This document shows, one piece after another, positions 7,896 to 55,585 of a stretch of DNA of 64,000 nt. The first letter of the stretch is position 1; every line of letters starts with the position of its first letter. A model generated the notes under the pieces. The model saw nothing but the letters and a program-made list of their open reading frames with translations, was not told the origin of the DNA and did not search any database. A program made the position numbers and the translations under genes. Source of the stretch: Actinomycetota bacterium (GTDB taxonomy: Bacteria; Actinomycetota; UBA4738). Where the stretch lies: contig DASXAQ010000103.1 of assembly GCA_036406615.1 (NCBI GenBank), positions 71,202 through 135,201 of the forward strand. The letters run 5' to 3'.

Positions 7896-8723
7896 ATGCT
7901 CAAAGCCATGTCGGACATCTCCGTCGGGGAGGCGCTGGAGGGGTCAGAGGGACGCCGGGTCCCCCCGACCCGGCCCCCCCGAACCGGCCCCGCCACCCTG
8001 CGGCTCGATGCGTGGTGGCTGCAACCGCTGGTGACGGTCCTGGTGCTCGGCGGCTTCGTGATCTACGGGACGTGGGTGGCGTTCCAGAACGCGAACTACT
8101 ACGCCGACCCCTACATCTCGCCGTTCTACTCCCCGTGCCTGACGACGAACTGCACGGCGCCCGGCTGGTCGATCATCGGGTCGTGGTGGACCTGGTCGCC
8201 CGCGCTGCTGATCCTGCCGTTCCCGCTGGCGTTCCGGCTGACCTGCTACTACTACCGCAAGGCGTACTACCGCTCGTTCTGGTGGGCGCCTCCGGCGTGC
8301 GCGGTGCGCGACGCGCGGGCGGCCTACACGGGTGAGACGCAGTTTCCCCTGATCCTGCAGAACATCCACCGCTACGCGTTCTACCTGGCGCTGCCGTTCC
8401 CGGTGATCCTGACCTACGACGCCATCCGCGGCTTCTTCTTCCCGGACGGCTTCGGCATGGGGCTCGGCACGCTGATCCTGCTGGTGAACGTCACGCTGCT
8501 GTGGACGTACACGCTGTCGTGCCATTCGTGCCGCCACCTGGTGGGCGGCCACGTGGACGTCTTCTCGAAGGCGAAGGTGCGCTACTGGCTGTGGCGGCGC
8601 GTCTCGCTGCTCAACCTGCGACATGCCCTGTGGGCATGGCTCAGCCTGTTCGCCGTCGCGCTGACCGACCTGTACGTGCGTCTGGTGGCCTCCGGCGCCA
8701 TCCACGACCCGAGGTTCTTCTGA
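7896..8723 (+). CDS. Succinate dehydrogenase/fumarate reductase membrane anchor subunit (Cys/His-rich polytopic protein)
   Basis: Multi-TM protein immediately upstream of sdhA with a TGATG overlap at 8723, and the same frame and gene order as the actinobacterial anchor-sdhA-sdhB operons. The start is codon 290 of artefactual long ORF 7029..8723; alternative start 7908. Confidence 0.65.
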   Translation: MLKAMSDISVGEALEGSEGRRVPPTRPPRTGPATLRLDAWWLQPLVTVLVLGGFVIYGTWVAFQNANYYADPYISPFYSPCLTTNCTAPGWSIIGSWWTWSPALLILPFPLAFRLTCYYYRKAYYRSFWWAPPACAVRDARAAYTGETQFPLILQNIHRYAFYLALPFPVILTYDAIRGFFFPDGFGMGLGTLILLVNVTLLWTYTLSCHSCRHLVGGHVDVFSKAKVRYWLWRRVSLLNLRHALWAWLSLFAVALTDLYVRLVASGAIHDPRFF

Positions 8724-15229: not shown

Positions 15230-15246
15230 GCGGTAGGCTGGCGCCG

Positions 15247-24509: not shown

Positions 24510-25886
24510 CTACGAGCCGGCCAGCTCGTTCACCAGGGCCGCGGCATCCAGCGTGCCGACCCCCGTCGAGAGGTCGTAGCCGGGCAGCGCGTCGAATCCC
24601 TGCACCGTGAACGTCTGGTTGTCCTGCGTGAACGTGACCGTGTTGTTGCCGGACGTCACGTCGACGATCCCCGCCGCGTGCTTCTGCGACAGGTTGTACA
24701 GCGCCGGGTTGATCCACCCCAGGGAGTGTCCGGCCGCCTGGTCGGCGATCGAGACCACGCCCGCGAACATCGGGGTCGCCCAGCTGGTGCCGCCCACGAT
24801 GTAGTAGCCGGGCGGCAGTCCGGGGAACCCGAGGTACGTGATCGCGCCGCCGTCGACGGCCGCGCTCATCGAGATGTCCGGAACGCCGCGGCGGCTGCCG
24901 ACGACGTCGGCGACGCTGCGCTGGAACGACGGGCGGGCGAAGAAGATCGACTCGCCGCCGCCGCTGGCCGCCGGGGCCGGCACCGCGTTGACGTTCGGGT
25001 TGTACGTGTCGTTCCACACGTTGTCGGCCGCCGTCCGGTTGCCGTCGGCGTCCAGGTGCAGCTGCGTCCCGCCCACGCCGGTCACCAGCGGGTCGCTGGC
25101 GGGCCACTGCGTCACCTGCTGCGTGTAGTAGCGCGTCAGGTCGTGCTTGAACCCGGTCGCGCCGGCGTCACCGCTGCCGGCCAGGACCGTGATGCCGGCC
25201 TGCTTGGCCCGGACGTACGTCCCGCGAAGGCCGTTGATGACCCCCTTGCCGCTGAACGTCTTCTCGGTGGCCGCGAAGCTCTGCGAGATGACCGACGCCA
25301 GGCGGTTGCTGATGACGTAGTTCTCCGACCGCATGATGTCCGGGAATCCGTGCAGCCCTTCGGTTTCGCTCACGGGAGTCTCGACCAGCAGGATGTTGGC
25401 TCCCGGCGCGACCGAGTGCGCCCACTCCACGTCGAGCGAGGTCTCGACCGCCCAGTTGAACATGTCGGAGTTCGGGTCGAACGGCGGGATGGGACCTGCC
25501 GGCGTGATGATGTTGAAGTTCGGCGGAGCCGGCAGCCCGAAGTCGGAGTCGAACTGCGCCAGGTCCGCCTCGATCGTCGGCGACCCGAACGAGTCGACGA
25601 TCGCGATCGTCTGGCCCGTCCCATCTAGGCCCTGCCCGTACAGCGTGTTGAGGTCGTACGCGTTCTGGATCTGGAACGGCGCGTAGCAGGCGATCCCGAA
25701 GTCCGCCTCGCAGTCGGCCGTGGTCGGCGGCTGCGCGGAGACGAAGTGCGCCTGCAGGCCCTTCCAGTTGATCCACTTCGTGTGCGAGTTCGGCTTGGTG
25801 CCTGCGAGCGCGCCCACGCTCGCTACCGCGAGCACCAGCCCGGCCACCGCACCGGCGATGGCCACCTTGCGGACGATTCCTGACAT
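24510..25886 (-). CDS. Secreted S53-family serine peptidase (sedolisin/kumamolisin-like) with pro-domain
   Basis: GGTSWATPMFAG catalytic-Ser motif. Signal peptide MSGIVRKVAIAGAVAGLVLAVASVGALA. Strong SD GAGAGGAGGT upstream of the ATG at codon 29 of the track ORF. Confidence 0.75.
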   Translation of the reverse strand: MSGIVRKVAIAGAVAGLVLAVASVGALAGTKPNSHTKWINWKGLQAHFVSAQPPTTADCEADFGIACYAPFQIQNAYDLNTLYGQGLDGTGQTIAIVDSFGSPTIEADLAQFDSDFGLPAPPNFNIITPAGPIPPFDPNSDMFNWAVETSLDVEWAHSVAPGANILLVETPVSETEGLHGFPDIMRSENYVISNRLASVISQSFAATEKTFSGKGVINGLRGTYVRAKQAGITVLAGSGDAGATGFKHDLTRYYTQQVTQWPASDPLVTGVGGTQLHLDADGNRTAADNVWNDTYNPNVNAVPAPAASGGGESIFFARPSFQRSVADVVGSRRGVPDISMSAAVDGGAITYLGFPGLPPGYYIVGGTSWATPMFAGVVSIADQAAGHSLGWINPALYNLSQKHAAGIVDVTSGNNTVTFTQDNQTFTVQGFDALPGYDLSTGVGTLDAAALVNELAGS

Positions 25887-25974
25887 CTGACCTCCTCTCG
25901 GCCCCCCTCGAATCGGGGCGAACGCTCCAAAAAACCATGAGCGCACCGAATTGGTCAAATCCGCAACCATGCCA

Positions 25975-26000
25975 CACGGGATGGAACGATCCCACGGGAT
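25975..26000. promoter_or_regulatory. Overlapping inverted repeats CACGGGAT-ggaacg-ATCCCACGGGAT in the lower-GC divergent region between S53 and M23-2; putative operator
   Basis: GGGAT/ATCCC arms are present twice. The site is 29 nt upstream of the M23-2 ATG at 26029, inside the only AT-richer 142-nt intergenic stretch (25887-26028). Confidence 0.3.
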
Positions 26001-26028
26001 CGCGGCTGGTCAGGGCGCTCGCGTTGAC

Positions 26029-27222
26029 ATGTCCCGCCGGGCTCCTGTAGGGATAGGGACCGTGCCTGGGCCACGGCTTCCCCACGCGGTCCGCTCGGCG
26101 GCGATCGCCGCCGCAGCCGTCGTGATCTCCCTCGCGGCGATCGTGCCCGTTCGTGCGGACACCCACAGCCAGCTGAGCAGCGCGCAGGCGAAGCTCAACT
26201 CCCTGATCAGGAAGGTCAAGGTGGCCCAGCGCGCCGAGAACGCCGTTCAGGCTCAGCTGACCGCGCTGGCCGCCCAGATCAGCGAAGTCCAGACGAAGAT
26301 GGCCGAGACGCAGGCCCGGATCCAACAGACGTCCAACCAGATCGCGGCCGCGCAGGCGGCCATCAACCGGCGACAGGGCGAGTTGGACGCCAGGGCCGCA
26401 GAGACCTACGAGGCGGGGCCGGCCAGCGAGCTCGAGCTGTTGCTGGGCTCCACGTCCATCGCCGACCTCACCGACCGGATCGAGCTGGCGGACGCCGCCG
26501 CGCGGTCGGACCAGGACCTGATCGACGCGCTGCACGACCAGCAGAACGTCCTTCGACAGCGCCAGACTCAGCTGCGGCAGCTGCAGGCCACGTTGCTGGC
26601 CCAGCAGGCGCAGCTGGAGCAACAGCAATCGGCGCTGAACGTGAAGCTCGCCGCCGCGAAGAAGGTGTTCGACCGGCTGGCGGGCGCCAAGCGGCAGGCC
26701 GAGAGGCTCGTGTCGACGCTGAAGCGACGGGCCGCCGCGGAGGCTCGCGCCGCGCTGGGGCGGGCCGTGTTCTTCGGCGGCGGGGGACCGAGCATCTCGG
26801 GCGTGCTCCTGACGTGCCCCGTCCGCGGGCCGCACGGCTACGTGGACGACTTCGGCGCGCCGCGACCCGGCCACATCCATGCCGGCGTCGACATGCAGGC
26901 CGGCGAGGGCACGCCCATCGTCGCGCCGTTCCCGGGCAATGCGGTGCGGACGTGGGATCCCGGCGGCGGCAACGGCGTGATGGTCTACGGCGCGCTCGGC
27001 TACGCCTACAACGCGCACCTGTCGAGCTACGGCACGCTCGGCAGCGTGAGCACCGGCACCGTCATCGGGTACGTCGGCGCCACGGGCGACGCGACCGGAC
27101 CCCACGACCACTTCGAGTGGCACCCGAACACGATCCCGGCTCACCCGTACGTGAGCCCATACGGCTACAGCGTGGTGGGGACCGCGATCGACCCGTTCCC
27201 GTATCTGAACTCGGTCTGCTAG
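26029..27222 (+). CDS. Secreted coiled-coil + M23 metallopeptidase (paralog of 23192..24409)
   Basis: Same architecture as the first M23 gene, with HAGVD and HDHFEWH motifs. It ends ...PFPYLNSVC*. Start at codon 27 of the track ORF; alternative starts 25951 and 25981. Confidence 0.8.
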   Translation: MSRRAPVGIGTVPGPRLPHAVRSAAIAAAAVVISLAAIVPVRADTHSQLSSAQAKLNSLIRKVKVAQRAENAVQAQLTALAAQISEVQTKMAETQARIQQTSNQIAAAQAAINRRQGELDARAAETYEAGPASELELLLGSTSIADLTDRIELADAAARSDQDLIDALHDQQNVLRQRQTQLRQLQATLLAQQAQLEQQQSALNVKLAAAKKVFDRLAGAKRQAERLVSTLKRRAAAEARAALGRAVFFGGGGPSISGVLLTCPVRGPHGYVDDFGAPRPGHIHAGVDMQAGEGTPIVAPFPGNAVRTWDPGGGNGVMVYGALGYAYNAHLSSYGTLGSVSTGTVIGYVGATGDATGPHDHFEWHPNTIPAHPYVSPYGYSVVGTAIDPFPYLNSVC

Positions 27223-32079: not shown

Positions 32080-33729
32080 CTAGAGCGGGATGTTGCCGTG
32101 CTTGCGAGAGGGGCCAGCCTCCCGCTTCGACAGCAGCATGCGAAGCGAGCGCACCAGCCGCGACCGGGTCTCGGCCGGCTCGATCACGTCGTCGACGAAC
32201 CCGCGCTCGGCGGCGATGTACGGGTTGCCGAACTGCTCCTCGTAGTCCGCGATCAGCTCGCGCCGCTTCGCGTCCGGGCTCTCGGCGCCCTGGATCTCGC
32301 GGCGGAAGATGACGTTCACGGCGCCCTCCGAGCCCATCACGGCGATCTCGGCCGTCGGCCACGCCAGGTTCACGTCCGAGCGCAGGTGTTTCGAGTTCAT
32401 GACCACGTACGCGCCCCCGTACGCCTTGCGCGTGATGACAGTCATCTTCGGGACGGTCGCCTCGCTGAACGCGTACAGCAGCTTCGCGCCGCGCCGGATG
32501 ATGCCGCCGTACTCCTGCGCGGTGCCGGGCAGGAACCCCGGCACGTCCTCGAACGCGATCAGCGGGACGTTGAACGCGTCGCAGAAGCGGATGAACCTGG
32601 CCGCCTTCTCGCTGGACTCGTAGTCCAGCGTGCCGGCCAGCACCTTGGGCTGGTTCGCCACGATGCCCACCGGGTGGCCGTCGAGGCGCGCGAACCCGAT
32701 CAGGATGTTCATGGCCCACAGGGGGAAGACCTCGTAGAACTCGCCGCCGTCGAAGATCCGGCGGATGACGTCCTTCATGTCGTACGGCTCGCGCGCGGAG
32801 TCCGGGACGATGTCGTTCAGCGCGTCGTCGCGGCGGTCGGGGTCGTCGGTCGGTGCGAACCGCGGCGGGTCCTCCAGGTTGTTCGACGGTAGGAACGACA
32901 GCAGGTAGCGGATCTGCGCCAGGCAGTTCGCCTCGTCGTCGGCGACGAAGCTGGCCATCCCCGAGCGCGTCGCGTGCGTCATCGCGCCGCCGAGCTCCTC
33001 GAACGTCACGTCCTCCCCGGTCACCGCCTTGATCACGTCGGGGCCGGTGATGAACATGTACGACGTGCCCTTCACCATGTAGACGAAGTCGGTGATGGCG
33101 GGGGAGTACACGGCTCCGCCGGCGCATGGGCCCATGATCACCGAGATCTGCGGGATCACGCCCGACGCGCGCACGTTGCGGTCGAACACGTCGCCGTAGC
33201 CGCCGAGCGACGCGACGCCCTCCTGGATGCGGGCGCCGCCCGAGTCGTTGATGCCGACGATCGGCGCGCCGGTCTCCATGGCCAGGTCCTGAATCTTCGA
33301 GATCTTCCCCGCCTGGATCTCGCCGAGGGATCCGCCGAAGACCGTGAAGTCCTGGCTGTAGACGAACACCTTCCGCCCGTCGATCGTGCCCCAGCCGGTG
33401 ACGACGCCGTCGCCGAAGGGCCGCACGCGGTCCAGGCCGTAGGTCCCGTAGCGATGGCGCGCGAGGGCGTCCATCTCGACGAACGATCCCTCGTCCACCA
33501 GCAGGTCGATGCGCTCGCGCGCGGTGAGCTTGCCGCGGGCGTGCTGGCGGTCGATCGCCTCGGCGCCGCCCCCCAGGCCGGCCTCCTCGCGCTGGCGTCT
33601 CAGGTAGTCGATGCGCTGGCGGACCGAGGCCTGGCCGGACGGCGACGGTTGCGCCGCAACGTCGTCGCCGACCGTCATGTCGTCTGGCTCGTCCTCGGCC
33701 GTGTCGCGTTCCTGCTTGGTATCGGCCAT
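32080..33729 (-). CDS. accD: Acyl-CoA carboxylase carboxyltransferase (beta) subunit, propionyl-CoA carboxylase-like
   Basis: Full carboxyltransferase N and C domains ([26 protein letters not shown]). 549 aa. Confidence 0.9.
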
Positions 33730-39288: not shown

Positions 39289-40533
39289 ATGGCCAAGGAC
39301 CTGTACGGCGTCGGGGAGATCCCACCGGTCGGTGAGGTACCGGCGCGCATGCACGCGCAGCTGGTTCGCCCCGACCGCTACGGCGATCCGGAGAAGGCGA
39401 TCCAGGACGAGGTCATCGACGTGCCGGAGATCGGGCCGCACGAGGCGCTCGTGATGGTCATGGCCGCGGGCGTGAACTTCAACAACGTGTGGGCCGCGCG
39501 CGGCGTGCCCGTCGACGTCACGAAGACCCAGGCCCGCTGGGGCGAGCCGACGGACTTCCACATCGTCGGATCGGACGCGTCCGGGGTCGTGTACTCCGTC
39601 GGGGACCAGGTGACGAACGTGAAGGTCGGCGACCGCGTGATCGTGCATGCGGGGCAGTGGGACCCGGACGACCCGAGCGCCGCCGACGGGCAGGACCCCG
39701 GCCTGGCCGACTCGTTCCGCGTCTGGGGATACGACACGTGCTGGGGTTCGTTCGCCCAGTTCTGCAAGGTGCAGGCGCATCAGTGCCTTCCGAAGGCGGA
39801 GCGATTGTCGTGGGAGGAGGCGGCCGCCCCGACGCTGACCGGCGCCACGGCGTACCGGATGCTGTTCGGGTGGCCGCCCAACACCGTGCGCGAGGGGGAC
39901 GTGGTCCTCGTGTGGGGCGGCTCCGGCGGATTGGGGTCGATGGCGGTGCAGCTCGTGACGCAGGCCGGCGGGCGCGCGGTCGCGGTCGTGTCGTCGCAGC
40001 GCAAGGGGGAGTTCGCGAAGTCCCTGGGCGCCGTCGGCTATGTCGATCGCACCCAGTTCTCGCATTGGGGCGTACCCCCGGCGTGGGACTCGCCCGAGTG
40101 GAAGCAGTGGTTCGACGGCGCGAAGGCCTTCGGCAAGGCGGTCTGGGATGTGCTCGGCGAACGGGTGAGCCCGCGGATCGTGTTCGACCATCCCGGTCAG
40201 GACACGATCCCCACGTCGATCTTCGTGTGCGATCGCGGGGGCATGGTCGTCATCTGCGCGGGCACCAGCGGCTACGACACGGTGGTCGACGTCCGCTACC
40301 TCTGGTACATGCAGAAGCGCTACCAGGGTTCGCACCTGTTCAACGACGAACAGGCGGCCGCGTTCAACGACCTGGTCCGCGACGGCAAGATCCAGACGAC
40401 GCTCGGGCACACGTACAGCTACGACCAGAGCGGCCTCGCCCATCAGCTGATGGGCGATGGAAAGCTGCCCGAGGGCAACGTCGCGGTGTTGATCAACAGC
40501 CCAGGACCCGGGCTAAAAGACCTGCCGTCGTAG
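39289..40533 (+). CDS. ccr: Crotonyl-CoA carboxylase/reductase
   Basis: N-terminal MHAQLVRPDRYGDPEKAIQDEVIDVPEIGPHEALVMVMAAGVNFNNVWAARGVP matches the CCR family (MDR superfamily). 414 aa. Start at codon 276 of the track ORF. Confidence 0.85.
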   Translation: MAKDLYGVGEIPPVGEVPARMHAQLVRPDRYGDPEKAIQDEVIDVPEIGPHEALVMVMAAGVNFNNVWAARGVPVDVTKTQARWGEPTDFHIVGSDASGVVYSVGDQVTNVKVGDRVIVHAGQWDPDDPSAADGQDPGLADSFRVWGYDTCWGSFAQFCKVQAHQCLPKAERLSWEEAAAPTLTGATAYRMLFGWPPNTVREGDVVLVWGGSGGLGSMAVQLVTQAGGRAVAVVSSQRKGEFAKSLGAVGYVDRTQFSHWGVPPAWDSPEWKQWFDGAKAFGKAVWDVLGERVSPRIVFDHPGQDTIPTSIFVCDRGGMVVICAGTSGYDTVVDVRYLWYMQKRYQGSHLFNDEQAAAFNDLVRDGKIQTTLGHTYSYDQSGLAHQLMGDGKLPEGNVAVLINSPGPGLKDLPS

Positions 40534-45680: not shown

Positions 45681-46202
45681 ATGAGCGGCCACACCATGGG
45701 CGACCTCGCGGAGGTCCTGGACAACCTGGGCGTGTTTCGAACCGAACCCGGCGACCTGCTCGAGCTGTGCCCGTCCGGGTTTCGGCGCGTGCCCATCGCC
45801 ACGGGTTCGGACTTCTACCTCTCGCTGCAGGGGTTCGCCCCGGGCCAGCCCGCCTTCGCGCACACCCACCCCGACTCGGAGGAGTGGGTCGTGGTGCTGC
45901 GCGGCTCGGGCGTGGCGCTGTTCGGCGGCCGGCCGACGCCGCTGTCCACCGGGGTGGTCGTGGGACGCGGCGCGCACCACCCGCACGGGTTCGTGGCAGG
46001 CGACGAGCCGATGATCCTGCTGTCGGCCCAGCTGCCGCGCCCCGCCGAGGGGGCCACGACGTGGGACGACCCCGGCGGGACCACCGAGCCGATCGCGTGC
46101 GGAACCGGAGGACCGTGCCGGCGATGTCCGAGGTGCGGCGGCCACAGCGCCCCCGCGCCGGGCGCGGCCTTCCGCTGCGAGAACTGCAGCAACGCGTTCT
46201 GA
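45681..46202 (+). CDS. Cupin-domain protein with C-terminal Cys6 zinc-ribbon-like tail
   Basis: Cupin metal motifs HTHPDSEEW and HHPHG. C-terminal CGTGGPCRRCPRCGG...FRCENC. 173 aa. Confidence 0.55.
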   Translation: MSGHTMGDLAEVLDNLGVFRTEPGDLLELCPSGFRRVPIATGSDFYLSLQGFAPGQPAFAHTHPDSEEWVVVLRGSGVALFGGRPTPLSTGVVVGRGAHHPHGFVAGDEPMILLSAQLPRPAEGATTWDDPGGTTEPIACGTGGPCRRCPRCGGHSAPAPGAAFRCENCSNAF

Positions 46203-46203: not shown

Positions 46204-47793
46204 TCAGGCCAGCGACACCAGATCCAGGTAGTCCTCGCTCCAGTAGTCCGTCGTGCCGTCCGGCATCAGCAGGACGCGGTCGGGCTCCAGCGCGCTCACG
46301 AACTCCTCGTCGTGGCTCACGATGACCATCGAGCCCGGCCACGACGTCAGGGCGGTCGCGATGGCCTCGCGCGAGGGCGGGTCCAGGTTGTTCGTCGGCT
46401 CGTCCAGCAGCAGCAGGTTGTGGCGTCCCGCCACGAGCTGCGCCAGCGCGAGCTTCGTCTTCTCGCCGCCGGACAGGGTGCCGGCGTCCTGGAACGCCCG
46501 TTCGCCGGTCAGGCCGAACATCCCCGTGAGCGCGCGCAGGTCCTGATCGGGCGCGGCCGACATCGCGCGCATGTGCGACAGCACGTCGACGCCCGGCGTG
46601 ATCCCTTCGTGCTCCTGCGCGTAATAGCCGGCCGACACGCCGGTGCCGAACCGGAACGTCCCCTGGTCCGGTTCGCTCTGCCCGGCCAGGATGCGCAGCA
46701 GCGACGTCTTGCCCGCGCCGTTGAGTCCCATGATCAGCAGCCGCTCGCCGCGCACCAGGTCGAACGCGACGTCCTCGAACACGAGCGGGCCGCCGTAGCC
46801 CTTGGCCATGCCCGCGACCTCCAGCGTCAGCTTGCCGCAGTGGGGCGGGTCGGGAAACCGGAACCGAACGCGCCGCTGTCGTTTCGGCGCCGCCACCGCC
46901 ACGGCGCGCAGGCGCGAGACGCGGGAGTCGAGGGTCTTGGCCTTGCGCGCGCGCTTCTCGGTCGAGTGCCGCATCGAATCCGCGAGCGAGGACAGCCGGC
47001 CGATCTCGGCCTGCTGGCGCTCGGCCAGTTTCGCCAGCCGGATCTCGTCGGCGAGCCGCGCGGCCCGGTACTGCGAGTACGTGCCCTTGTATTCGACCAG
47101 CCCGTCGTCGTCCAGGTGCAGGACGCGCGTGATCGCCTTGTCCAGCAGGATCAGGTCGTGGCTGACGACCAGCACGGCGCCGCGGCTGGTCGCGAGGAAC
47201 CGCATCAGCCACACCTTCGCGTCCACGTCCAGGTGGTTGGTCGGCTCGTCGAGCAGCAGGGTGTCGCTGCCGGCGAACAGGATCCGGGCGAGCTCCAGCC
47301 GGCGGCGCTCGCCACCCGACAGCACCTTCACCGGCCGGTCCATGCGGTCCGCGGCGATGCCCAGTCCGGCCGCGATGCGTCGCGCCTCGGACTCCGCCGA
47401 GTAGCCGCCGGCCGAGCGGAACTCCTCCTCGGCGCGGGAGAACTTCGCGACGTTGCGCTCCGAGGGGTCCTCCTCCAGCCGCAGCCGGAGTTTCTCGAGC
47501 CGGACGGTCGCCGCGTCCAGGTCGCGGCCGGACAGCACGTGCGCGAGCGCCGTCAGCCCGGGGTCGAGGTGGCGCAGCCCGGGGTCCTGCGGCAGGTAGC
47601 CGAGCGAGCCGCGCCGGACGACGCGCCCGCCCGCCGCCGGTGCCTGGCCGGCGACGATCTTCAGCAGGCTCGTCTTGCCCGCTCCGTTGCGACCGACCAG
47701 CCCGACCTTGTCGCCGGTGCGCAGCTGGAACGAGGCGCCGGACAGGATGACCCGGCCGCCCGCCTCCACGGAGAGATCGTCGACGTGCAACAT
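46204..47793 (-). CDS. ABC-F family ATPase (tandem ABC domains, no TMD; translation-factor/ARE type)
   Basis: Two Walker A sites (GRNGAGKTS, GLNGAGKTS), two LSGGE signatures and a charged interdomain linker. 529 aa. Confidence 0.85.
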   Translation of the reverse strand: MLHVDDLSVEAGGRVILSGASFQLRTGDKVGLVGRNGAGKTSLLKIVAGQAPAAGGRVVRRGSLGYLPQDPGLRHLDPGLTALAHVLSGRDLDAATVRLEKLRLRLEEDPSERNVAKFSRAEEEFRSAGGYSAESEARRIAAGLGIAADRMDRPVKVLSGGERRRLELARILFAGSDTLLLDEPTNHLDVDAKVWLMRFLATSRGAVLVVSHDLILLDKAITRVLHLDDDGLVEYKGTYSQYRAARLADEIRLAKLAERQQAEIGRLSSLADSMRHSTEKRARKAKTLDSRVSRLRAVAVAAPKRQRRVRFRFPDPPHCGKLTLEVAGMAKGYGGPLVFEDVAFDLVRGERLLIMGLNGAGKTSLLRILAGQSEPDQGTFRFGTGVSAGYYAQEHEGITPGVDVLSHMRAMSAAPDQDLRALTGMFGLTGERAFQDAGTLSGGEKTKLALAQLVAGRHNLLLLDEPTNNLDPPSREAIATALTSWPGSMVIVSHDEEFVSALEPDRVLLMPDGTTDYWSEDYLDLVSLA

Positions 47794-47803
47794 GCCGCCG
47801 ACA

Positions 47804-48880
47804 TTATGACGTCGTGAGGGCCACGGCCCGGCTCGCCAGGTTCGGCACGCCGGTTCGCAGCGTCTCGAAGAACGGGTCGTCGGTGTGGCCGGCCAGGTGT
47901 CGCGCGTAGCTGCCTTCCAACAGGATCGCGAGCTTGAACAGGGCCAGTACGCGGTAGAAACGGAGGCCGGCCATGGTCACCGAGCGGCCGGACCGCTCGG
48001 CGTACCGAGACAGGAGATCCTCTCGCGCGGCGAAGCCCGGCAGTCGCGATGGCGCGGTCGCATCGTGGGCGAACGTCGCCGGCTCGTCCGCGGCGGGCCA
48101 GAACGAGAGCATCCATCCCACGTCGGCCAGGGGATCGCCGATCGTGGCCATCTCCCAGTCGAAGATCGCGGCCAACGCAGGAGGCGCGCCGCGCCCCAGC
48201 CCGGGATCGAACGCCACGTTGTCCAGCTTGTAGTCCCCGTGGACGAGCGTCGCCGGACCCGAGGCGGGCAGGTTGGCGCGAAGCCATTCGCCGGCCGCCC
48301 GCAGGTCGGGGAGCGGGCGCGTCAGCGGCTCGGTCAGGTCCAGCTGTCCGCCCCAGCGCCGGAGCTGGCGCTCGAGGTAGCCGGTCTCCCGGCCGAACCC
48401 CTCGAGTCCCGCCGCCCGAGGGCCGATCGCGTGCACCTCGGCGAGCGCGTCGACCAGCTCCTCGCCGACGGCGCGCCGCGCAGCATCCGTCAGCGACGGC
48501 ACCGGCGGCCCCAAGTCCCGCATCACGACGCCGCGGACGCGCTCCATCAGATAGAAGGGGACGCCGATCACCGACGGGTCTGAGCACGCCGCGACCGGTC
48601 GCGGCGCGCGGACGGGCGTGTCCGCGATCGCCGACAGCACGCGGTGCTCGCGCAGCACGTCGTGTGCCGTCGGGAGAAACGCCCCGCGCGGGGGACGGCG
48701 GAGCACCCACGACTGCTCGCCGCGGCGGACGAAGAACGTCTCGTTGGAATGTCCCTGGGTGTGTCGCTCGACCTCCAGGGGCTCGTCCGCGGGTCCGAAG
48801 CGATCGTCGATCCAGCGCGCGAGCGCCCGGCGGTCGACCAGCGGCTCGCCGTTCGAAGCTGCCGGTGCGCCGGAGCCCAC
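47804..48880 (-). CDS. Phosphotransferase (APH-like kinase fold), ACAD-associated type
   Basis: HGDYKLDN catalytic loop and a DWE motif. The GTG start is 5 nt after the ACAD stop, with no SD. 358 aa. Confidence 0.7.
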   Translation of the reverse strand: MGSGAPAASNGEPLVDRRALARWIDDRFGPADEPLEVERHTQGHSNETFFVRRGEQSWVLRRPPRGAFLPTAHDVLREHRVLSAIADTPVRAPRPVAACSDPSVIGVPFYLMERVRGVVMRDLGPPVPSLTDAARRAVGEELVDALAEVHAIGPRAAGLEGFGRETGYLERQLRRWGGQLDLTEPLTRPLPDLRAAGEWLRANLPASGPATLVHGDYKLDNVAFDPGLGRGAPPALAAIFDWEMATIGDPLADVGWMLSFWPAADEPATFAHDATAPSRLPGFAAREDLLSRYAERSGRSVTMAGLRFYRVLALFKLAILLEGSYARHLAGHTDDPFFETLRTGVPNLASRAVALTTS

Positions 48881-48885
48881 GTGCG

Positions 48886-50100
48886 CTACCCGAGGCCGCC
48901 GGCTCCGGACGCGGTGGTGCCGGTCTCGGCCATCGCCTTCACGAGCGACCGGGCGATCACCATGCGGTGGACCTCCGACGGCCCGTCGTAGATGCGCGCC
49001 GCGCGGGCGTCGCGGTAGTAGCGCTCCAGCGGGAGGTCCGCCGAGTACCCGAGCGCTCCGCACACCTGCACCGCGCGGTCCACGACCCGGCCGAGCATCT
49101 CGGCCGCGGCCACCTTCACCATCGACACCTCGCGGCGCGCGTCGAGCCCCGATTCCAGCTTCCACGCGGCGTGCAGCACCATGAGCCGGGCGGCGTGCAG
49201 CTCGATGGCCGAGTCCGCGAGGGGGAACGACGCGCCCTGGTGCTCGTTCAGTCGGCGGCCGAAGTCCTCGCGCGCCCCGGCGCGTTCGACCGCAATGTCG
49301 AGCGCCCGCTGCGCGACGCCGATCCAGCGCATGGCGTGGGCCAGCCGCGCCGGACCCAGCCGGGCCTGCGCGAGCGCCAGGCCTTCGCCGGGGCTGCCGA
49401 TCACGGACTCCGGGCCCGCCCGGCAGTCCTCGAGCAGGATCTCGCAGTGGCCGCCCGGCGCGTCGGCGCCCATGACCGGGATCTCGCGCGTCACCTTCCA
49501 GCCGGGGTTGTCGCCGTCGACCAGGAACAGCGTGTGCCGCTGCCGCGGGTGCCGGCTGGTGTCCTCTTCGGTCTTGGCCAGCACCATCGCGAACGCGGCG
49601 CCGCGTGCGCCGGTGATGAACCACTTCTCTCCGTCGATCCGCCACCCGTCGCCGTCGCGCACGGCGGTCGTGCGCAGCTGCGTCGGGTCGGACGAACCCA
49701 CCACGCGCTCCGTCATGGCGAAGCACGACCGAGCCCGGCCCTCCGCCAGGGGACGAAGGTAGCGCTCTCGCTGGGCGGGCGAGCCCGCGGTGAGCAGCAG
49801 GTGCATGTTGCCCTCGTCCGGCGCCATGCAGTTCAGCGCCAGCGACGCCATGGCGGACGGCCCCAGCTCCTGCGAGACCATCGCCATGCCGAGCGGCCCC
49901 AGGCCAAGCCCGCCCCACTCCGGCGGCAGATGAGGGTTCCACAGCCCGGCCCCGCGGGCGCGCTCGCGCAGGCTGCTGAGCGTCGACTCGAACCCCTCCG
50001 GGACGGCGGTCGCCTCCGCCGGCAGGACCTCGTCGGAGACGAAGGCGCGAACCCGTGCGCACAGGTCCTGCAGGTCGGCGGGAATCGAGAAGTCAACCAC
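48886..50100 (-). CDS. Acyl-CoA dehydrogenase
   Basis: ACAD N/middle/C-terminal domains (CFAMTERVVGSSDPT, YDGPSEVHR). 404 aa. Confidence 0.85.
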   Translation of the reverse strand: MVDFSIPADLQDLCARVRAFVSDEVLPAEATAVPEGFESTLSSLRERARGAGLWNPHLPPEWGGLGLGPLGMAMVSQELGPSAMASLALNCMAPDEGNMHLLLTAGSPAQRERYLRPLAEGRARSCFAMTERVVGSSDPTQLRTTAVRDGDGWRIDGEKWFITGARGAAFAMVLAKTEEDTSRHPRQRHTLFLVDGDNPGWKVTREIPVMGADAPGGHCEILLEDCRAGPESVIGSPGEGLALAQARLGPARLAHAMRWIGVAQRALDIAVERAGAREDFGRRLNEHQGASFPLADSAIELHAARLMVLHAAWKLESGLDARREVSMVKVAAAEMLGRVVDRAVQVCGALGYSADLPLERYYRDARAARIYDGPSEVHRMVIARSLVKAMAETGTTASGAGGLG

Positions 50101-50117
50101 GGTCGACTATTTGACCG

Positions 50118-50588
50118 CTACGGGCGGGGCGGTGGCGAATCGCCCTCCTGCACCAGTTCGACCAGCACGCCGCGGAATCCCTTTGGATGGACGAACGCGA
50201 CGAGCGTTCCGCGCGAGCCTGGACGGGGGGCGTCGTCGATCAGCGGGACGTCCTGCGCGCGCAGCGACGCCAGCGCGGCGGCCACGTCCTCCACGCGGTA
50301 CGCGAGGTGGTGCACGCCCTCGCCCCGCCGCTCCAGGAACCGGCCCACCGGCGTCTCGGGGCCGAGCGCGCCGAGCAATTGGACGTACGACTCGCCGACG
50401 GCGAACAACACCTCCTCGACCCCCTGATCCTCGACGCGCTCTCGGTGGGCCGGCTGCAGCCCGAACGCCGACGCGTACATGGCGACCGCGGCTTCGAGGT
50501 CGGCGACGGCGATCCCGACGTGGTCGATCGCGCCGGCAAGCGGGGGAAGGGCTTCGTTCGCGCTCGACGATTGCGTGGGTTCGGTCAC
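50118..50588 (-). CDS. Methylmalonyl-CoA epimerase (VOC/glyoxalase family)
   Basis: IDHVGIAVADLE and HHLAYRVEDV tandem VOC modules. 156 aa. GTG at 50588 overlaps the XRE gene stop (GTGA). Confidence 0.75.
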   Translation of the reverse strand: MTEPTQSSSANEALPPLAGAIDHVGIAVADLEAAVAMYASAFGLQPAHRERVEDQGVEEVLFAVGESYVQLLGALGPETPVGRFLERRGEGVHHLAYRVEDVAAALASLRAQDVPLIDDAPRPGSRGTLVAFVHPKGFRGVLVELVQEGDSPPPRP

Positions 50589-50962
50589 GCGCGGCGGCGC
50601 CGCTTGCGGCCCGCAGCCGGCGGCGGCTGCAGCCGGTTGATGAGATCCATCGCCTCGGGCAGGTGATAGGCGGGGGAGGACAGGGCAGACAGCATCGCCG
50701 CCACGCCCTGGTACTTGATGTCCGGTGGCGTGTTCGGCGTGTCGATCGCGTAGAACTCGACCAGCTCCATGAACTGGCGAAGCGACGGGACCAGCCCGCC
50801 GCGCTCGTACGCGTAGATCGTCTGCTGGGCGGCGGGGCACCCGGCGACGGCGGCGGCGTCCTTCACGGCCCGATAGCCGGCGGTGCGCCGCAGCCCCCGC
50901 AGCAGCCCGCCGATGTGCTTGGCGGTGTCGGCGCCGACCGGCTCCTGCTTCTTTCGCGGCAA
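50585..50962 (-). CDS. XRE-family helix-turn-helix transcriptional regulator
   Basis: HTH_XRE-like core (TAGYRAVKDAAAVAGCPAAQQTIYAYERGGLVPSLRQFMELVEFY). TTG start preceded by SD GGGAGGG. Basic C-terminal tail. Confidence 0.6.
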   Translation of the reverse strand: MPRKKQEPVGADTAKHIGGLLRGLRRTAGYRAVKDAAAVAGCPAAQQTIYAYERGGLVPSLRQFMELVEFYAIDTPNTPPDIKYQGVAAMLSALSSPAYHLPEAMDLINRLQPPPAAGRKRRRRA

Positions 50963-51231
50963 CGAAAACGTCCCTCCCGGCAGGCCGGAACGTGCCCGCG
51001 GCCCGCGCGGCTACCTTAGAACCTGCGTTTCCGGCTTGTCATGCTCGCGAGGATTCGCCACCTCCTCGCAACGAATCGGGTTACGACCAAAGGACGCCGC
51101 CGCTACACCCTTCGCCCGATACCGGCTCGGAACGGGTGAGCGTACGATGGCCACACGCCGGAACCCGGACCTCGAAAACGCCCGGGAAGTCCGAATCGCA
51201 CCGTCACCGACACGAGCGACGAGGGAGCGAC

Positions 51232-53103
51232 ATGGCCGAGCAGAGCGTGCAGGACCCGCACGACACGGGGGTGCCGATCCAGTCGAGCCTGGCTCGCGAC
51301 GGCAAGCAGGACGTGGGCAGGATCCAGGACCGGAGCCGACGGCGACGGCTGTGGAAGGCGCTGCTCGTGATCGCCGTGCTGGACATCTACGTGGCCATCC
51401 GCGTGTGGCACGGCCAGTCCCCGGTGCCGCGGCTGCCCGATGGTTGGGGCTACTACGCCTTCTTCATCGTGTACTTCGCGGTGCTGCTGCTCGTGGGCCT
51501 GGCGATGACGCTGCCGTTCCTCATCTCGGCGCGGTCGCCGGCGCGCATGGTCCGGCCGGAGGAGATCGAGATCGGCCTGAAGCAGGTCGTCGGGCTCGAC
51601 GGCCAGGTGGACGAGGTCATGCGGACGCTCGACGTCTTTCTCGCGTATCGCACGTTCCGGGGGCTTGGCGGCAATCCGCGCCGCGGCGTGCTGTTCGAGG
51701 GGCCTCCGGGCACGGGCAAGACGTTCCTGGCCAAGGCGATGGCGAAGCAGGCAGGGGTGCCGTTCCTGTTCGCCTCCGCGACGCAGTTCCAGACGATGTT
51801 CTTCGGCATGACGGCGTTTCGCATCCGCCGCTACTTCAAGAAGCTGCGCAAGGCGGCCATCCGAGAGGGCGGGGCGATCGGATTCATCGAGGAGATCGAC
51901 GCGATCGCCCAGAACCGCGGCGGCGTCGACACGATGTCGCCGGCGTCGGGCAACGGTCGTTCGATCTCCCGGTTCATGGGGACGGAAAGCAGCGGCTTCG
52001 TCAACGAACTGCTGGTGCAGATGCAGTCGTTCGACGAGCCGTCGCGGACGAATCGGATCCTGAGCTGGCTCGGCGACCGGCTGAACGGCATGCTCCCGCC
52101 GGATTGGCGGATCAAGGCCGGCGGCCCCGTGTACCACAACGTCCTGGTGATCGCCGCGACGAACCGCGCCTCGTCCCTCGACCCGGCGCTGTTGCGGCCC
52201 GGCCGCTTCGACCGCCGCCTGTACTTCGACTTCCCGACGAAGCGCGCGCGGCGCGAACTGGTCGACTTCTTCCTGAACCGCAAGGCGCACGCGCCCGACC
52301 TCGACGACGACACGGCGCGAGAGCGCCTGGCCTTCGAGCTGCTCGGCTACACGCCGGCCATGCTCGAGCGGCTGTTCGACGAGGCCCTGGTGGTGGCCGT
52401 GCGCGACGGGCGCACCACGATGGAACTGAAGGACGTCTACGACGCGCGCCTGACGCAGGAGCTGGGGCTGAAGTCTCCGGTCACCTACACCGACCACGAG
52501 CGCACGGTGATCGCGACCCACGAGGCCGGACACGCCACGGCCGCCTACCTGCTCGGTACCACTGAGCGCATGGAGGTCCTGTCGATCATCAAGCGCCGCG
52601 AGGCCCTGGGACTGCTCGCGCGATCCGACACGCAGGAGCGCTTCACGAAGTCCCGCTCGGAGCTCGAGGGGTCCATCGCGATCGCGCTCGGTGGCATGGC
52701 CGCGGAGGAGATCTACTTCGGCGAGAGCACGACCGGCCCCGGAGGCGACTTGGGCCAGGCGACCGCGACGGCCACGACCATGGTGGGCGCGCTCGGCATG
52801 GGGAGCTCGCTGCTGTCGTTCACCGCGGTGGACGACGGCCCGGTCTCGGCGACGAACCTGGTCGGCAAGGTGATGGGGGATGCGGACGCCAAGCGCGAGG
52901 CGCAGGCGATCATGACCGCACAGAAGGAGCGCGTGCTCGAGGTGCTCGGGCACAACCGCGACATCCTGGAAGCGCTGCGCGATGCGCTGATCGAGCGCGA
53001 CGAGCTGGTGGGCGACGAGATCACGTCGGTGATCAACGCGACGCTCGACCGCCGCAAGATCGTCGTGCTGCCCGAGGCCGACCCGGCGGAGACGGACCGC
53101 TAG
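51232..53103 (+). CDS. FtsH-like membrane AAA+ ATPase / M41 zinc metalloprotease paralog (short extracytoplasmic loop, AAA insertion)
   Basis: Two TM helices separated by about 15 aa. Walker A GPPGTGKT, Walker B FIEEIDA, a roughly 40-aa insert before VIAATNR, and the zinc site HEAGHA. SD GAGGGAG at 51221-51227. ATG at codon 81 of the track ORF. Confidence 0.8.
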   Translation: MAEQSVQDPHDTGVPIQSSLARDGKQDVGRIQDRSRRRRLWKALLVIAVLDIYVAIRVWHGQSPVPRLPDGWGYYAFFIVYFAVLLLVGLAMTLPFLISARSPARMVRPEEIEIGLKQVVGLDGQVDEVMRTLDVFLAYRTFRGLGGNPRRGVLFEGPPGTGKTFLAKAMAKQAGVPFLFASATQFQTMFFGMTAFRIRRYFKKLRKAAIREGGAIGFIEEIDAIAQNRGGVDTMSPASGNGRSISRFMGTESSGFVNELLVQMQSFDEPSRTNRILSWLGDRLNGMLPPDWRIKAGGPVYHNVLVIAATNRASSLDPALLRPGRFDRRLYFDFPTKRARRELVDFFLNRKAHAPDLDDDTARERLAFELLGYTPAMLERLFDEALVVAVRDGRTTMELKDVYDARLTQELGLKSPVTYTDHERTVIATHEAGHATAAYLLGTTERMEVLSIIKRREALGLLARSDTQERFTKSRSELEGSIAIALGGMAAEEIYFGESTTGPGGDLGQATATATTMVGALGMGSSLLSFTAVDDGPVSATNLVGKVMGDADAKREAQAIMTAQKERVLEVLGHNRDILEALRDALIERDELVGDEITSVINATLDRRKIVVLPEADPAETDR

Positions 53104-53234
53104 GGAGCCAGCTCGAACGGCGGGGCGATCGCAAGGTTCGTCACCTTCCGCTTGGAGCCATCGGCGCGTTCTCGATCACCGGCGAACTCGAGGCCGGGCC
53201 TAGAATGGCCGGAAAGACCCTCCGGGAGACGCGA

Positions 53235-54419
53235 ATGGCCTCGTCCGTGATCGTTGCAGGAGCCCGAACGCCGATCGGGAAGTTCGCCGGCGGGCTGTCC
53301 ACCGTGCCGGCCGTGTCGCTCGGCGCCGTCGCCATCCGCGAGGCGCTGGCCCGCGCCGGCGTGCCCGCGGGCGACGTCGAGTACGTGATCATGGGCCACG
53401 TGATCCAGGCCGGCGCCGGGCAGATCACCGCCCGGCAGGCCGCCATCGAGGCAGGCGTTCCGAAAGAGGTCCCGGCCGTCACGATCAACAAGGTCTGCCT
53501 GTCCGGGCTCAACGCCGTCGCGCTGGCCGACCAGCTGATCCGGGCGGGCGAGCTGGAGGTCGCCGTCGCCGGCGGCATGGAGTCGATGTCGCTGGCGCCG
53601 TATCTGATGCCGAAGGCACGGACCGGTGAGCGTATGGGCGACGCGGCCATGGTGGATTCGATGATCCACGACGGCCTTTGGTCGACGTTCACCAACCAGC
53701 ACATGGGGGAGGCCTCCGACGAGGTGAACCGCGACCTGGGCCTCGGCCGGGCCGAACAGGACGCGTGGGCCGCCCGCTCGCACGCGCGGGCCCACGACGC
53801 GTGGGAGTCCGGACGCATGGCCGAAGAGGTCGTGCCCGTGGAGGTTCCGCAGCGAAAGGGCGACCCCGTGATCGTCGGCCGCGACGAGGGCATCCGGCCG
53901 GACACGACCGAAGTCTCGCTCGCGGCCCTTCGGCCCGCGTTCCACGACGACGGGACGATCACCGCCGGCAACGCGTCGCAGATCTCCGACGGCGCGGCTG
54001 CGCTGGTGGTCATGTCGGCCGATCGGGCGTCGCGCCTCGGGCTCGAGCCGCTGGCCGAGATCGTTGCCCACGGCATGTCGGCTGAGCGCTACTCGTACCT
54101 GCACACCGTGCCGGCGATCGCGCTGCAGAACGCGCTGAAGAAGGCGGATCTGGACCCCCACGATCTCGGGCTGATCGAGATCAATGAGGCGTTCGCGGCG
54201 GTCTCGCTCAACGCGGCGCGGATGCTCGGCGCCGACGAGGACATCGTCAATGTGAACGGGGGAGCGGTGGCCCTGGGCCACCCGATCGGCGCGACGGGCG
54301 CGCGGCTCGTCCTGACCCTGGCGCACGAGATGCGCCGGCGGGGCGTCGAGTACGGCGGCGCGACCCTGTGCGGCGGCGGCGGCCAGGGCGACGCGCTGGT
54401 CATCCGGCGGCCGGCATGA
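53235..54419 (+). CDS. Acetyl-CoA C-acetyltransferase (thiolase II)
   Basis: Thiolase active-site regions (NKVCLSGL, NVNGGAVALGHPIGATG, GGGQG). Start at codon 11 of the track ORF. Confidence 0.9.
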   Translation: MASSVIVAGARTPIGKFAGGLSTVPAVSLGAVAIREALARAGVPAGDVEYVIMGHVIQAGAGQITARQAAIEAGVPKEVPAVTINKVCLSGLNAVALADQLIRAGELEVAVAGGMESMSLAPYLMPKARTGERMGDAAMVDSMIHDGLWSTFTNQHMGEASDEVNRDLGLGRAEQDAWAARSHARAHDAWESGRMAEEVVPVEVPQRKGDPVIVGRDEGIRPDTTEVSLAALRPAFHDDGTITAGNASQISDGAAALVVMSADRASRLGLEPLAEIVAHGMSAERYSYLHTVPAIALQNALKKADLDPHDLGLIEINEAFAAVSLNAARMLGADEDIVNVNGGAVALGHPIGATGARLVLTLAHEMRRRGVEYGGATLCGGGGQGDALVIRRPA

Positions 54420-55585
54420 AGGTGGCCGACCTGGCGTTCGACCTGCCGGAGGAGCTTCGCGAGTTCCGCGACGTGGTGCGCGAGATCGTGGAAACGCGGG
54501 TCGGACACAAGCGCGCGGCCGAGATCGACGAGACCGACGAGTTCCCCTGGGACGTCCACAAGCTGTTCGTTGAGAACGAGCTCATGGCCGTCGGTTACCC
54601 GGAGGAGTTCGGCGGCGCGGGCGGCGGTTCGCTGACCGTCGCCGTGATGATCGAGGAGATCTCCCGGGTCTCCGCGGGTTGCTCGCTGTTCCCCCTGGTC
54701 AGCCGCCTGGGGGCCATCCCGGTCCTGCTGGCCGGCACCGATGCGATGAAGCGCGAGCTGTTCGGCGGCATCGCCCGGGGCGACCACCTCATGTCGTACT
54801 GCCTGACCGAGCCGGGCAGCGGATCGGATTCGGTGGCCATGCGGACGCGGTACGAAGCCACCGGGGGCGGGTACCGGCTTCGCGGCACGAAGCGGTTCAT
54901 CACCGGCGCGGGGGTCTCCGACGCGTACATGGTGTTCGCCACACGCGATCCGGCCGAGAAGGCGAAGGGCATCTCCGCGTTCCTCGTCTACAAGGACGAT
55001 CCCGGCGTCTCCTTCGGCAAGGAGGAGCAGAAGATGGGCATCCGCGGGTCGCCGACGCGCGAGGTGATCTTGGAGGACGCCGAGATCCCGGGCGACCGTC
55101 TGATCGGCGACGAGGGCGAGGGCTTCGCCTACGCGATGCGGACGCTGGACTACTCCCGGCCGACGATCGCCGCGCAGGCGCTGGGGATCGCGCAGGGGGC
55201 GTTCGACTTCGCCGCCAGGTACTCGCTGTCGCGCGAGCAGTTCGGCGCGCCGATCTCTTCGCTGCAGGGCGTGCAGTTCATGCTCGCCGACATGGCGATG
55301 GAGATCGAGGCGGCACGGCTGTTGGTGTACCGCGCAGCAGCGCTCGTGGACGCGAAGGACCCGCGGATGACCGCGTTCGCGTCCATGGCCAAGTGCTTCG
55401 CGAGCGATGTCGCGATGAAGGTGACGACCGATGCGGTCCAGGTGCTCGGCGGCTACGGCTACATGCGCGAGTACCCGGTCGAGCGGATGATGCGCGACGC
55501 GAAGATCACCCAGATCTACGAGGGGACGAACCAGATCCAGCGCGTGGTGATCGCCCGCGAGATCCTGCGGGCAATCGATTCCTAA
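54416..55585 (+). CDS. Acyl-CoA dehydrogenase (short/butyryl-CoA DH-like)
   Basis: CLTEPGSGSDS and YEGTNQIQR motifs. The ATG overlaps the thiolase stop (ATGA). Confidence 0.9.
   Translation: MKVADLAFDLPEELREFRDVVREIVETRVGHKRAAEIDETDEFPWDVHKLFVENELMAVGYPEEFGGAGGGSLTVAVMIEEISRVSAGCSLFPLVSRLGAIPVLLAGTDAMKRELFGGIARGDHLMSYCLTEPGSGSDSVAMRTRYEATGGGYRLRGTKRFITGAGVSDAYMVFATRDPAEKAKGISAFLVYKDDPGVSFGKEEQKMGIRGSPTREVILEDAEIPGDRLIGDEGEGFAYAMRTLDYSRPTIAAQALGIAQGAFDFAARYSLSREQFGAPISSLQGVQFMLADMAMEIEAARLLVYRAAALVDAKDPRMTAFASMAKCFASDVAMKVTTDAVQVLGGYGYMREYPVERMMRDAKITQIYEGTNQIQRVVIAREILRAIDS

Follow-up and report, generated by a model that had tools for sequence, protein, structure and literature searches.

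Among the regulators of acyl-CoA metabolism, PccR, RamB and Mycobacterium tuberculosis PrpR, which belong to the ScfR family, are helix-turn-helix (HTH) proteins dedicated to genes of the propionyl-, acetyl- and ethylmalonyl-CoA pathways, and the genes coding for regulators of this family often adjoin their targets (PMC6765138, PMC10370305). They are proteins of about 450-490 residues, in which the N-terminal HTH is joined by a DUF955/IrrE-like domain and by a DUF2083 sensor domain (PMC6765138). In this work, we focus on a run of five co-directional genes carried by a 64,000-nt stretch of contig DASXAQ010000103.1 from an Actinomycetota bacterium (assembly GCA_036406615.1), the whole of which, with a GC content of about 71%, is hereafter named the window. 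The run opens with a gene for a small protein resembling XRE-type HTH regulators, which overlaps the gene for methylmalonyl-CoA epimerase (MCE), and it continues with genes for an acyl-CoA dehydrogenase (ACAD), an APH-type kinase and an ABC-F ATPase. The XRE protein falls outside the ScfR family, since it has 125 residues, of which only the HTH region matches any model, and harbours no recognisable ligand-sensing module. A literature search for an XRE regulator linked to MCE returned no relevant report, and we know of no work on regulation in this soil actinobacterial lineage.

The junction between the first two genes can be compared with translational coupling by termination-reinitiation at ATGA, GTGA or TGATG sequences. 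It shares with this system a 4-nt overlap, a Shine-Dalgarno (SD) sequence that is strong on the first cistron only, and a conserved frame, and nothing distinctive separates it from the textbook case, the coupling itself being putative here. With regard to the ACAD and kinase genes, the closest described chemistry is that of ACAD10, ACAD11 and LvaC, where a 4-hydroxyacyl-CoA is phosphorylated and the phosphate is then eliminated, yielding 2-enoyl-CoA (PMC12440821, PMC11342911). In ACAD11, residues R626, R631, H634 and R637 and the catalytic D753 have been described (PMC12440821), and in the lva operon of Pseudomonas putida the two activities are borne by separate polypeptides, LvaA and LvaC (PMC12440821, PMC11342911).

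We propose, with moderate confidence, that the locus is made of a conserved XRE-MCE unit and of lineage-specific insertions, probably expressed from one transcript with coupled translation. Such an arrangement does not overturn current understanding; its value lies in annotation and in hypothesis generation, as it provides a candidate regulator for C2-C5 acyl-CoA assimilation through the ethylmalonyl- and methylmalonyl-CoA routes in a widespread group of uncultured soil actinobacteria.

The XRE-epimerase gene pair

Relatives of the XRE protein are encoded in 183 species-level genomes, and the 80 loci inspected all come from metagenome-assembled genomes of uncultured Actinomycetota. Upstream neighbours were counted over 79 loci, and downstream neighbours over the 58 loci in which the sequence extends for at least 3 kb beyond MCE. 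All neighbourhood counts derive from homology searches; a crude GC3-based gene finder missed several genes, including that for crotonyl-CoA carboxylase/reductase (Ccr) in the window. Gene calls were checked independently against the public annotation of a contig encoding an identical 125-residue XRE protein, where the genes, the 4-nt overlap, the two gaps that follow (17 and 5 nt) and the 269-nt intergenic region leading to the divergent gene for an FtsH-like protease are all as in the window.

The MCE gene directly follows the XRE gene in 78 of the 80 loci. Start and stop codons overlap in 47 of them, as NTGA in 39 and by a single nucleotide (TGATG or TAGTG) in 8, and a gap of at most 27 nt is found in another 24. 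An NTG arises wherever A, G or T precedes a TGA, so that a GTGA sequence says little by itself, and the reading frame provides the fair test: in 62 of 78 loci, the frame of MCE is compatible with an overlap, compared with 26 expected (binomial p ~8e-17, for loci that are not phylogenetically independent). The most distant full-length members of the family (E ~1e-31) still show the 4-nt overlap with MCE in independent gene calls. XRE and MCE form a real, conserved two-gene unit. The initial annotation had proposed, as a check on coupling, that the junction be sought in related genomes; it is kept there, and coupling therefore survives this test. In locus L024, XRE and MCE are separated by a gene for isocitrate lyase (7410-8867, minus strand; NF011645, 730 bits) that lies on the strand opposite to theirs, and in no other locus is the pair split by a gene. 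Locus L044 (7001-8823) has kept XRE and the FtsH-like gene in the absence of MCE, and a convergent Ccr gene is found directly after XRE.

It had also been envisaged that the small HTH open reading frame (ORF) is not translated, in which case the epimerase would start further upstream. An in-frame GTG does exist at 50840 and would open an ORF of 240 residues (50118..50840). However, the small ORF is clearly coding: divergence in its frame is biased towards the third codon position (differences of 0.29, 0.20 and 0.47 at positions 1, 2 and 3), ATG, GTG or TTG occupies the same aligned first codon in 81 of 81 cases, and hundreds of homologues exist at the protein level. Furthermore, the MCE family model begins at residue 21 of the short form, no other in-frame start is present between the XRE stop and this core, and the independent gene call corresponds to the short form. 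The longer epimerase is effectively refuted by these features, and we attach next to no weight to it.

Duplex energies with the anti-SD sequence were computed for 14 starts in the window. The value of -10.8 kcal/mol obtained for XRE is the strongest of all, compared with -1.7 for MCE, -2.4 for ACAD, -4.8 for the APH-type kinase and -5.0 for ABC-F, in agreement with the earlier description of an XRE gene endowed with its own SD and TTG start. Because the MCE start is located on the stop codon of the regulator and lacks a ribosome-binding site of its own, the epimerase is most likely translated by reinitiation. Ribosomes terminating on XRE would resume translation at MCE, and the amount of epimerase made would follow that of the regulator. 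In bacterial operons, no class of overlap is more common than that of four bases between start and stop codons; the junction, first regarded as unusual, belongs to this ordinary class, and represents here the conserved state of a bicistron. The arrangement as a whole, with the regulator first, a 4-nt overlap, and later genes devoid of SD, is ordinary for high-GC actinobacteria.

Upstream of XRE, a sigma-70-type promoter can be proposed, from which transcription would start near 51006 and leave a 5' untranslated region (UTR) of about 44 nt. A search of both strands of the 64 kb for TGACA-N17/18-TANNNT returned a single site, ATGACA-N18-TAAGGT, with 0.17 expected by chance, and 16 of 21 near-clade loci show the same architecture at 39-89 nt before the XRE start; when column conservation is anchored on the promoter, only the -35 and -10 columns are conserved. 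The XRE/BldD-like HTH gene, with its own promoter and strong ribosome-binding site, would represent the first cistron. With gaps of -4, 17, 5 and 10 nt, SD sequences that are weak or missing from the second gene onwards, and only one promoter-like site seen, the layout is of the operon type, and a single transcript is probable; all five genes would then be carried by one mRNA starting near 51006. The co-directionality of the five minus-strand genes, their tight spacing and their identities agree with ORFs and domain searches, as do the GTGA overlap and the 5- and 10-nt gaps first reported, but the gap between MCE and ACAD, initially given as 18 nt, measures 17 nt.

The small HTH protein and its upstream region

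More than 900 homologues share 76-99% identity with the XRE protein, about 1,250 more are grouped around a relative with 55% identity, and the percentage identity across species ranges from 55% to 86%. The family is compact and isolated, with 83 representative clusters at E <=1e-3 and 17 at <=1e-30 among 1.84 billion proteins. Its ends are near-invariant, the start being M/V/L-PRKKQEP and the tail RLQPxPAAGRRRRKR; in the window protein, both tails are basic (N-terminal MPRKKQEP..., C-terminal ...GRKRRRRA). The family alone possesses the conserved C-terminal half, to which no matches were found outside it, and the Arg-rich tail. One modest novelty is therefore an uncharacterised and compact HTH family which, across a large clade of uncultured bacteria, is firmly associated with an epimerase and an FtsH-like protease.

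With regard to its fold, most homologues of the more distant sub-clade carry a precomputed PF13560 annotation, and some also PF01381. An AF2 model built from 50 diverse sequences reached a pLDDT of 81.7, and its top Foldseek matches in the PDB were all of the XRE type, namely, 5woq (an XRE protein of M. smegmatis), 3f51 (ClgR), 2ewt (the N-terminal domain of BldD), and C-proteins. The BldD N-terminal domain was also retrieved by the family profile at E 0.014, as the only PDB match below E 0.1. The best reading of these sequence and model data is that the small protein represents an XRE/BldD-like HTH protein with predicted DNA binding, and it would most likely act as a local regulator of the locus, its binding and its targets being likewise predicted. 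The likeness to ClgR, BldD and the M. smegmatis XRE protein resides in the fold of the model, in size and in the actinobacterial setting. In contrast, sequence similarity to ClgR and BldD is marginal, and the C-terminal half and Arg-rich tail of this compact and isolated family are its own. Orthology with ClgR was rejected, as the family profile does not retrieve ClgR at E <=1. A toxin-antitoxin system, in which an XRE antitoxin would precede its toxin, was also considered and rejected, since both the equivalog score and the genomic context identify the downstream gene as a genuine MCE.

The region preceding XRE differs between clades. In 27 of the more distant loci (within L022-L080), only 6-9 nt separate a conserved GCTATCGTG -10 box from the XRE start codon, and the XRE-MCE mRNA would accordingly be leaderless. 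A conserved block, GAnCnGCTATCGTGc, overlaps this -10 box directly before the start in the same 27 loci (for example L039 and L068, around 6985-7000); as an operator it was judged too weak, since it contains only a 3-nt dyad, ACG-N5-CGT. Other loci have this box 25-50 nt ahead of the start, together with an SD. In the window, a 7-bp inverted repeat (51047-51053 / 51063-51069) is located just upstream of the XRE -35 box. Such repeats could represent drifting sites of the regulator, or could fold into hairpins within the 5' UTR of the FtsH-like mRNA, which is transcribed divergently. At equivalent positions, perfect or near-perfect inverted repeats with species-specific sequences occur in L002, L009, L015, L017 and L019.

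Several results speak against a DNA-binding regulator. The match of the window protein to Pfam HTH_31 (24.9 bits, E 2.5e-5, residues 17-74) is below the gathering score of 27. The Foldseek matches listed above, at probabilities of 0.92-0.94 and TM-scores of 0.36-0.68, have non-significant E-values of 0.2-0.8, and a first AF2 model, built from 21 close homologues (pLDDT 62), had no HTH matches, its Foldseek output being meaningless. Moreover, a search for palindromic operators with exact 5- or 6-nt half-sites and 0-12 nt spacers, in 22 near- and 59 far-clade upstream regions, gave nothing above shuffled controls, and no conserved block other than the -35 and -10 boxes was detected in the 81 upstream regions. 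In addition, the window XRE protein has no NCBIfam match. Autoregulation by XRE and its joint control of the two divergent directions, suggested in the initial annotation, are hypothetical, no conserved operator having been detected in these upstream regions.

The lack of an operator in these searches would fit another role for the small protein, namely, that of a stoichiometric partner of the epimerase, such as a chaperone or scaffold, with the overlap matching the production of the two proteins as for subunits of a complex. An identity of 55-86% across species is unusually high for a small regulator, the pairing with MCE is obligatory, and the C-terminal half finds no matches outside a family of only 83 clusters in 1.84 billion proteins, as could be expected of such a partner. 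On the other hand, homologues match HTH_31 and HTH_3, the top fold neighbours of the model are all DNA-binding XRE proteins, the profile matches the DNA-binding domain of BldD, and arms that are basic at both the N and the C terminus are typically found in DNA binders. To our knowledge, the well-studied MCEs need no partner. We consider a partner role very improbable, and retain that of a putative DNA-binding regulator.

The ACAD-kinase pair and the ABC-F gene

The third protein of the run matches all three ACAD Pfam domains. Its best PDB relative is 4hr3 (263 bits), followed by ACAD11 (238-245 bits), compared with about 193 bits for MCAD and SCAD. The window sequence ARLGPARLAHAMRW aligns with GRLGPGRIHHCMRT of ACAD11, and its R-x4-R-x2-H-A-M-R motif provides the equivalents of R626, R631, H634 and R637, so that all four basic residues of the phosphate-binding cluster are present; the Cys of the HCMR motif of ACAD11 is replaced by Ala, as in 4hr3. 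The IYDGPSEVH segment (Y-D-G-P-S-E-V-H) aligns with LADGPDEVH of ACAD11 and contributes the counterpart of the catalytic D753, an Asp in place of the usual ACAD Glu. As for the adjacent kinase, it matches Pfam APH (1.5e-50), PDB 9o56 (241 bits) and the kinase domain of ACAD11 (179 bits, E 1.5e-51), and carries the catalytic motif HGDYKLDN. The catalytic Asp, the R/R/H/R cluster and the HGD..N kinase motif are thus shared with mammalian ACAD10/11.

On the basis of these signature residues and of the kinase match, the pair can be assigned to a split module of the ACAD10/11 (LvaA/LvaC) type acting on 4-hydroxyacyl-CoA, and not, as initially annotated, to generic acyl-CoA catabolism. The kinase is predicted to phosphorylate 4-hydroxyacyl-CoA, like the kinase domain of ACAD10/11 and LvaA, and the ACAD to eliminate the phosphate, converting 4-phosphoacyl-CoA into 2-enoyl-CoA; 4-hydroxy acids would in this way be fed into beta-oxidation. 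Such a split module, as predicted from sequence, is new in these bacteria. It differs from the lva operon by the order of its genes, ACAD preceding the kinase, by the absence of an LvaB-like small gene and of LvaD and LvaE, and by its attachment to an epimerase operon. Since propionyl-CoA is a product of odd-chain 4-hydroxy acids, 4-hydroxyvalerate among them, the pair may plausibly be linked in function to the epimerase.

The last protein of the run possesses two ABC_tran domains and an ABC_tran_Xtn linker, which is the domain composition of ABC-F factors. It does not reach the level of a named subfamily, with 298 versus 599 bits for EttA, 364.9 versus 380 for NF000355, and scores far below the cutoffs for all ARE models. 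Among solved structures, it is closest to E. coli YheS (292 bits), followed by Uup, PoxtA, YbiT and EttA, and it is best described as YheS-like by sequence, rather than as an EttA or a member of a resistance class. The ABC-F stop codon is 1 nt from that of a cupin-domain gene (45690-46202, plus strand), in a tail-to-tail convergence that leaves no space for an intergenic terminator; the cupin-domain protein ends with a zinc-ribbon-like CxxC...CxxC tail.

Comparison with the other loci separates these genes from the XRE-MCE unit. Downstream of MCE, ACAD and APH genes are found in 8 of the 58 loci, ABC-F in 5, and both in none, the near relatives of the window having either ACAD-APH or ABC-F between MCE and Ccr. 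In L004 and L008, ABC-F follows MCE at a gap of about 35-110 nt, depending on where the MCE end is placed. Both pieces, the ACAD10/11-type pair and the YheS-like ABC-F, are, from these comparisons, later, lineage-specific insertions between the epimerase and Ccr in the lineage of the window. The ABC-F gene reads as a syntenic neighbour pushed downstream by the insertion of ACAD-APH. It had been viewed as an odd passenger of the operon; a gene present in 5 of 58 loci only is a variable neighbour and not a functional passenger.

The insertions also raise the question of whether the five genes are cotranscribed, and what weighs against a single transcript is of two kinds. The five-gene order was found in no other species genome examined, which leaves the co-expression of ACAD-APH or ABC-F with the epimerase devoid of comparative support; of the operon initially proposed, the tight spacing holds, while conservation does not, the full set being present in none of the other loci examined. 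In addition, the single mRNA is deduced solely from the short gaps and from the fact that no other consensus promoter was seen, in a phylum whose promoters are degenerate. It is conceivable, therefore, that XRE-MCE alone forms the unit, and that ACAD-APH, ABC-F or both are expressed from internal promoters within upstream coding sequence, tight spacing then reflecting recent insertion into a compact genome. The lineage-specific occurrence of the two pieces fits this view, the gaps that precede ABC-F in L004 and L008 offer room for a promoter of its own, and, given the degeneracy of actinobacterial promoters, internal ones could escape a consensus scan. Nevertheless, the 17-, 5- and 10-nt gaps and the weak SD sequences of the window leave no intergenic room for promoters, the sole TGACA-N17/18-TANNNT site of the 64 kb lies upstream of XRE, and about 10 other genomes have an equally tight MCE-ACAD-APH, its junctions measuring about 0-45 nt; tight adjacency of ACAD and APH themselves is seen in about 11 other loci. 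Separate transcripts thus appear possible but doubtful, and one mRNA remains the reading that we favour. A generic scan for sigma-70 promoters and intrinsic terminators between 45600 and 51400 gave no match at all, not even the XRE promoter, and is uninformative at 71% GC; no RNA family was found at the Rfam E-value threshold between positions 45000 and 55000.

The divergent protease and the acyl-CoA neighbourhood

The gene that diverges from XRE codes for a paralogue of the FtsH-like AAA+/M41 zinc proteases. With 289 bits, it is far below the TIGR01241 cutoff of 600, and it has an intact HEAGH zinc site, a Walker A motif and the second region of homology; its oddities are a FIEEID Walker B motif and an insertion of about 40 residues in the AAA module. 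The divergent arrangement, already described for the window, is confirmed there and recurs in 72 of 79 loci, and a thiolase gene is found beyond the FtsH-like gene in 63 of 79. The protease gene has a good SD of its own (-8.2 kcal/mol at ATG 51232).

ClgR controls protease genes, and what stands out in the comparison with this regulator is that a protease gene is here the divergent neighbour of XRE. The HTH protein might be tied mainly to this protease, either through ClgR-like activation or repression of a protease-thiolase operon, or as a labile regulator whose level is set by the protease, and the overlap with the epimerase would then represent compact packing. Such a link would account for an FtsH-like neighbour that is nearly as constant as MCE, for locus L044, where XRE and the FtsH-like gene persist without MCE, for the presence of the protease regulator ClgR among the closest fold matches, and for the separate SD of the protease gene. 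However, no FtsH-like gene could be detected in L032 and L071, which both retain XRE-MCE, the overlap with MCE, with its preserved frame, is evidently constrained, and ClgR is not retrieved by sequence in the family profile search. We regard this alternative as unlikely, and retain the reading of a putative local regulator of the locus.

A more speculative possibility, which we hold to be quite improbable, combines the two partners. As the HTH protein is sensor-less and yet constantly paired with an FtsH-like protease, the protease might supply the signal input, and the two would constitute a protease-regulator switch with a logic like that of ImmA/ImmR or IrrE/DdrO, in which regulated degradation of the HTH protein would set the transcription of thiolase, epimerase and Ccr. 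If this is true, the switch would tie epimerase output to regulator synthesis through the start/stop overlap, and the ethylmalonyl- and methylmalonyl-CoA pathways would be governed by a control circuit not described before, which a large lineage of uncultured soil Actinomycetota has conserved.

With regard to the metabolic setting, the epimerase scores 144.1 bits against TIGR03081, an equivalog model with a cutoff of 114.95, and also matches Pfam Glyoxalase_4; its best PDB relatives are the MCE structures of S. coelicolor, P. shermanii and human. A Ccr-like gene is present on the opposite strand downstream of XRE in 59 of 80 loci, at no more than 700 nt from the MCE end in 37, and Ccr in the relatives reaches 519-555 bits against TIGR01751, compared with a cutoff of 379 (for example L084, 1244-2482, and L085, 2630-3871, both on the minus strand). 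This convergent Ccr next to MCE in most relatives points to a role of the epimerase in the ethylmalonyl-CoA pathway, and by sequence the enzyme probably serves both the ethylmalonyl-CoA and the methylmalonyl-CoA routes. In the window, Ccr is about 10 kb from MCE, further genes intervening besides ACAD-APH and ABC-F, and the 64-kb region is enriched in genes of propionyl- and methylmalonyl-CoA metabolism (Table 1). The ancestral module can be reconstructed from these neighbourhoods as thiolase and FtsH-like genes in one direction and XRE-MCE in the other, with a convergent Ccr, in an ethylmalonyl-/methylmalonyl-CoA setting. Its likeness to ethylmalonyl-CoA pathway gene sets lies in the thiolase, epimerase and TIGR01751-level Ccr neighbours of most related genomes; it differs in that an FtsH-like protease gene and a small HTH gene are located between thiolase and epimerase. 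We know of no described ethylmalonyl-CoA cluster with a protease and an HTH gene at this place, and a literature search found none.

Table 1. Positions in the window of the run, its upstream region and the surrounding acyl-CoA genes
Feature	Position	Strand	Remarks
XRE-like HTH gene	50585..50962	-	TTG start, 125 aa
GTGA junction	50585..50588	-	MCE GTG (50588-50586) overlaps XRE TGA (50587-50585)
Methylmalonyl-CoA epimerase (MCE)	50118..50588	-	GTG start, 156 aa
ACAD gene	48886..50100	-	17-nt gap after MCE
APH-type kinase gene	47804..48880	-	5-nt gap after ACAD stop
ABC-F gene	46204..47793	-	10-nt gap after kinase; last of the co-directional run
Shine-Dalgarno GGGAGGG	50972..50978	-	9 nt upstream of XRE TTG
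Putative sigma-70-type XRE promoter	51013..51042	-	ATGACA (51042-51037), 18-nt spacer, TAAGGT (51018-51013)
Divergent intergenic region	50963..51231	.	269 nt, XRE to FtsH-like gene
FtsH-like AAA+/M41 zinc protease paralogue	51232..53103	+	Pfam Peptidase_M41 and AAA
Acetyl-CoA acetyltransferase (thiolase)	53205..54419	+	Pfam Thiolase_N, Thiolase_C; downstream of FtsH-like gene
Crotonyl-CoA carboxylase/reductase (Ccr)	39289..40533	+	Convergent; TIGR01751 516.7 bits vs 378.55
Methylmalonyl-CoA mutase catalytic subunit	15172-16842	+	
PccB-like carboxyltransferase	32080-33729	-	
Further ACAD	21951-23120	+	
Further ACAD	54368-55585	+	

Elsewhere in the window, an ORF with no assigned function (24510-25970) is flanked, on the opposite strand, by two paralogous genes for M23 peptidases with a PcsB-type coiled coil (23192-24409 and 25951-27222, both on the plus strand).

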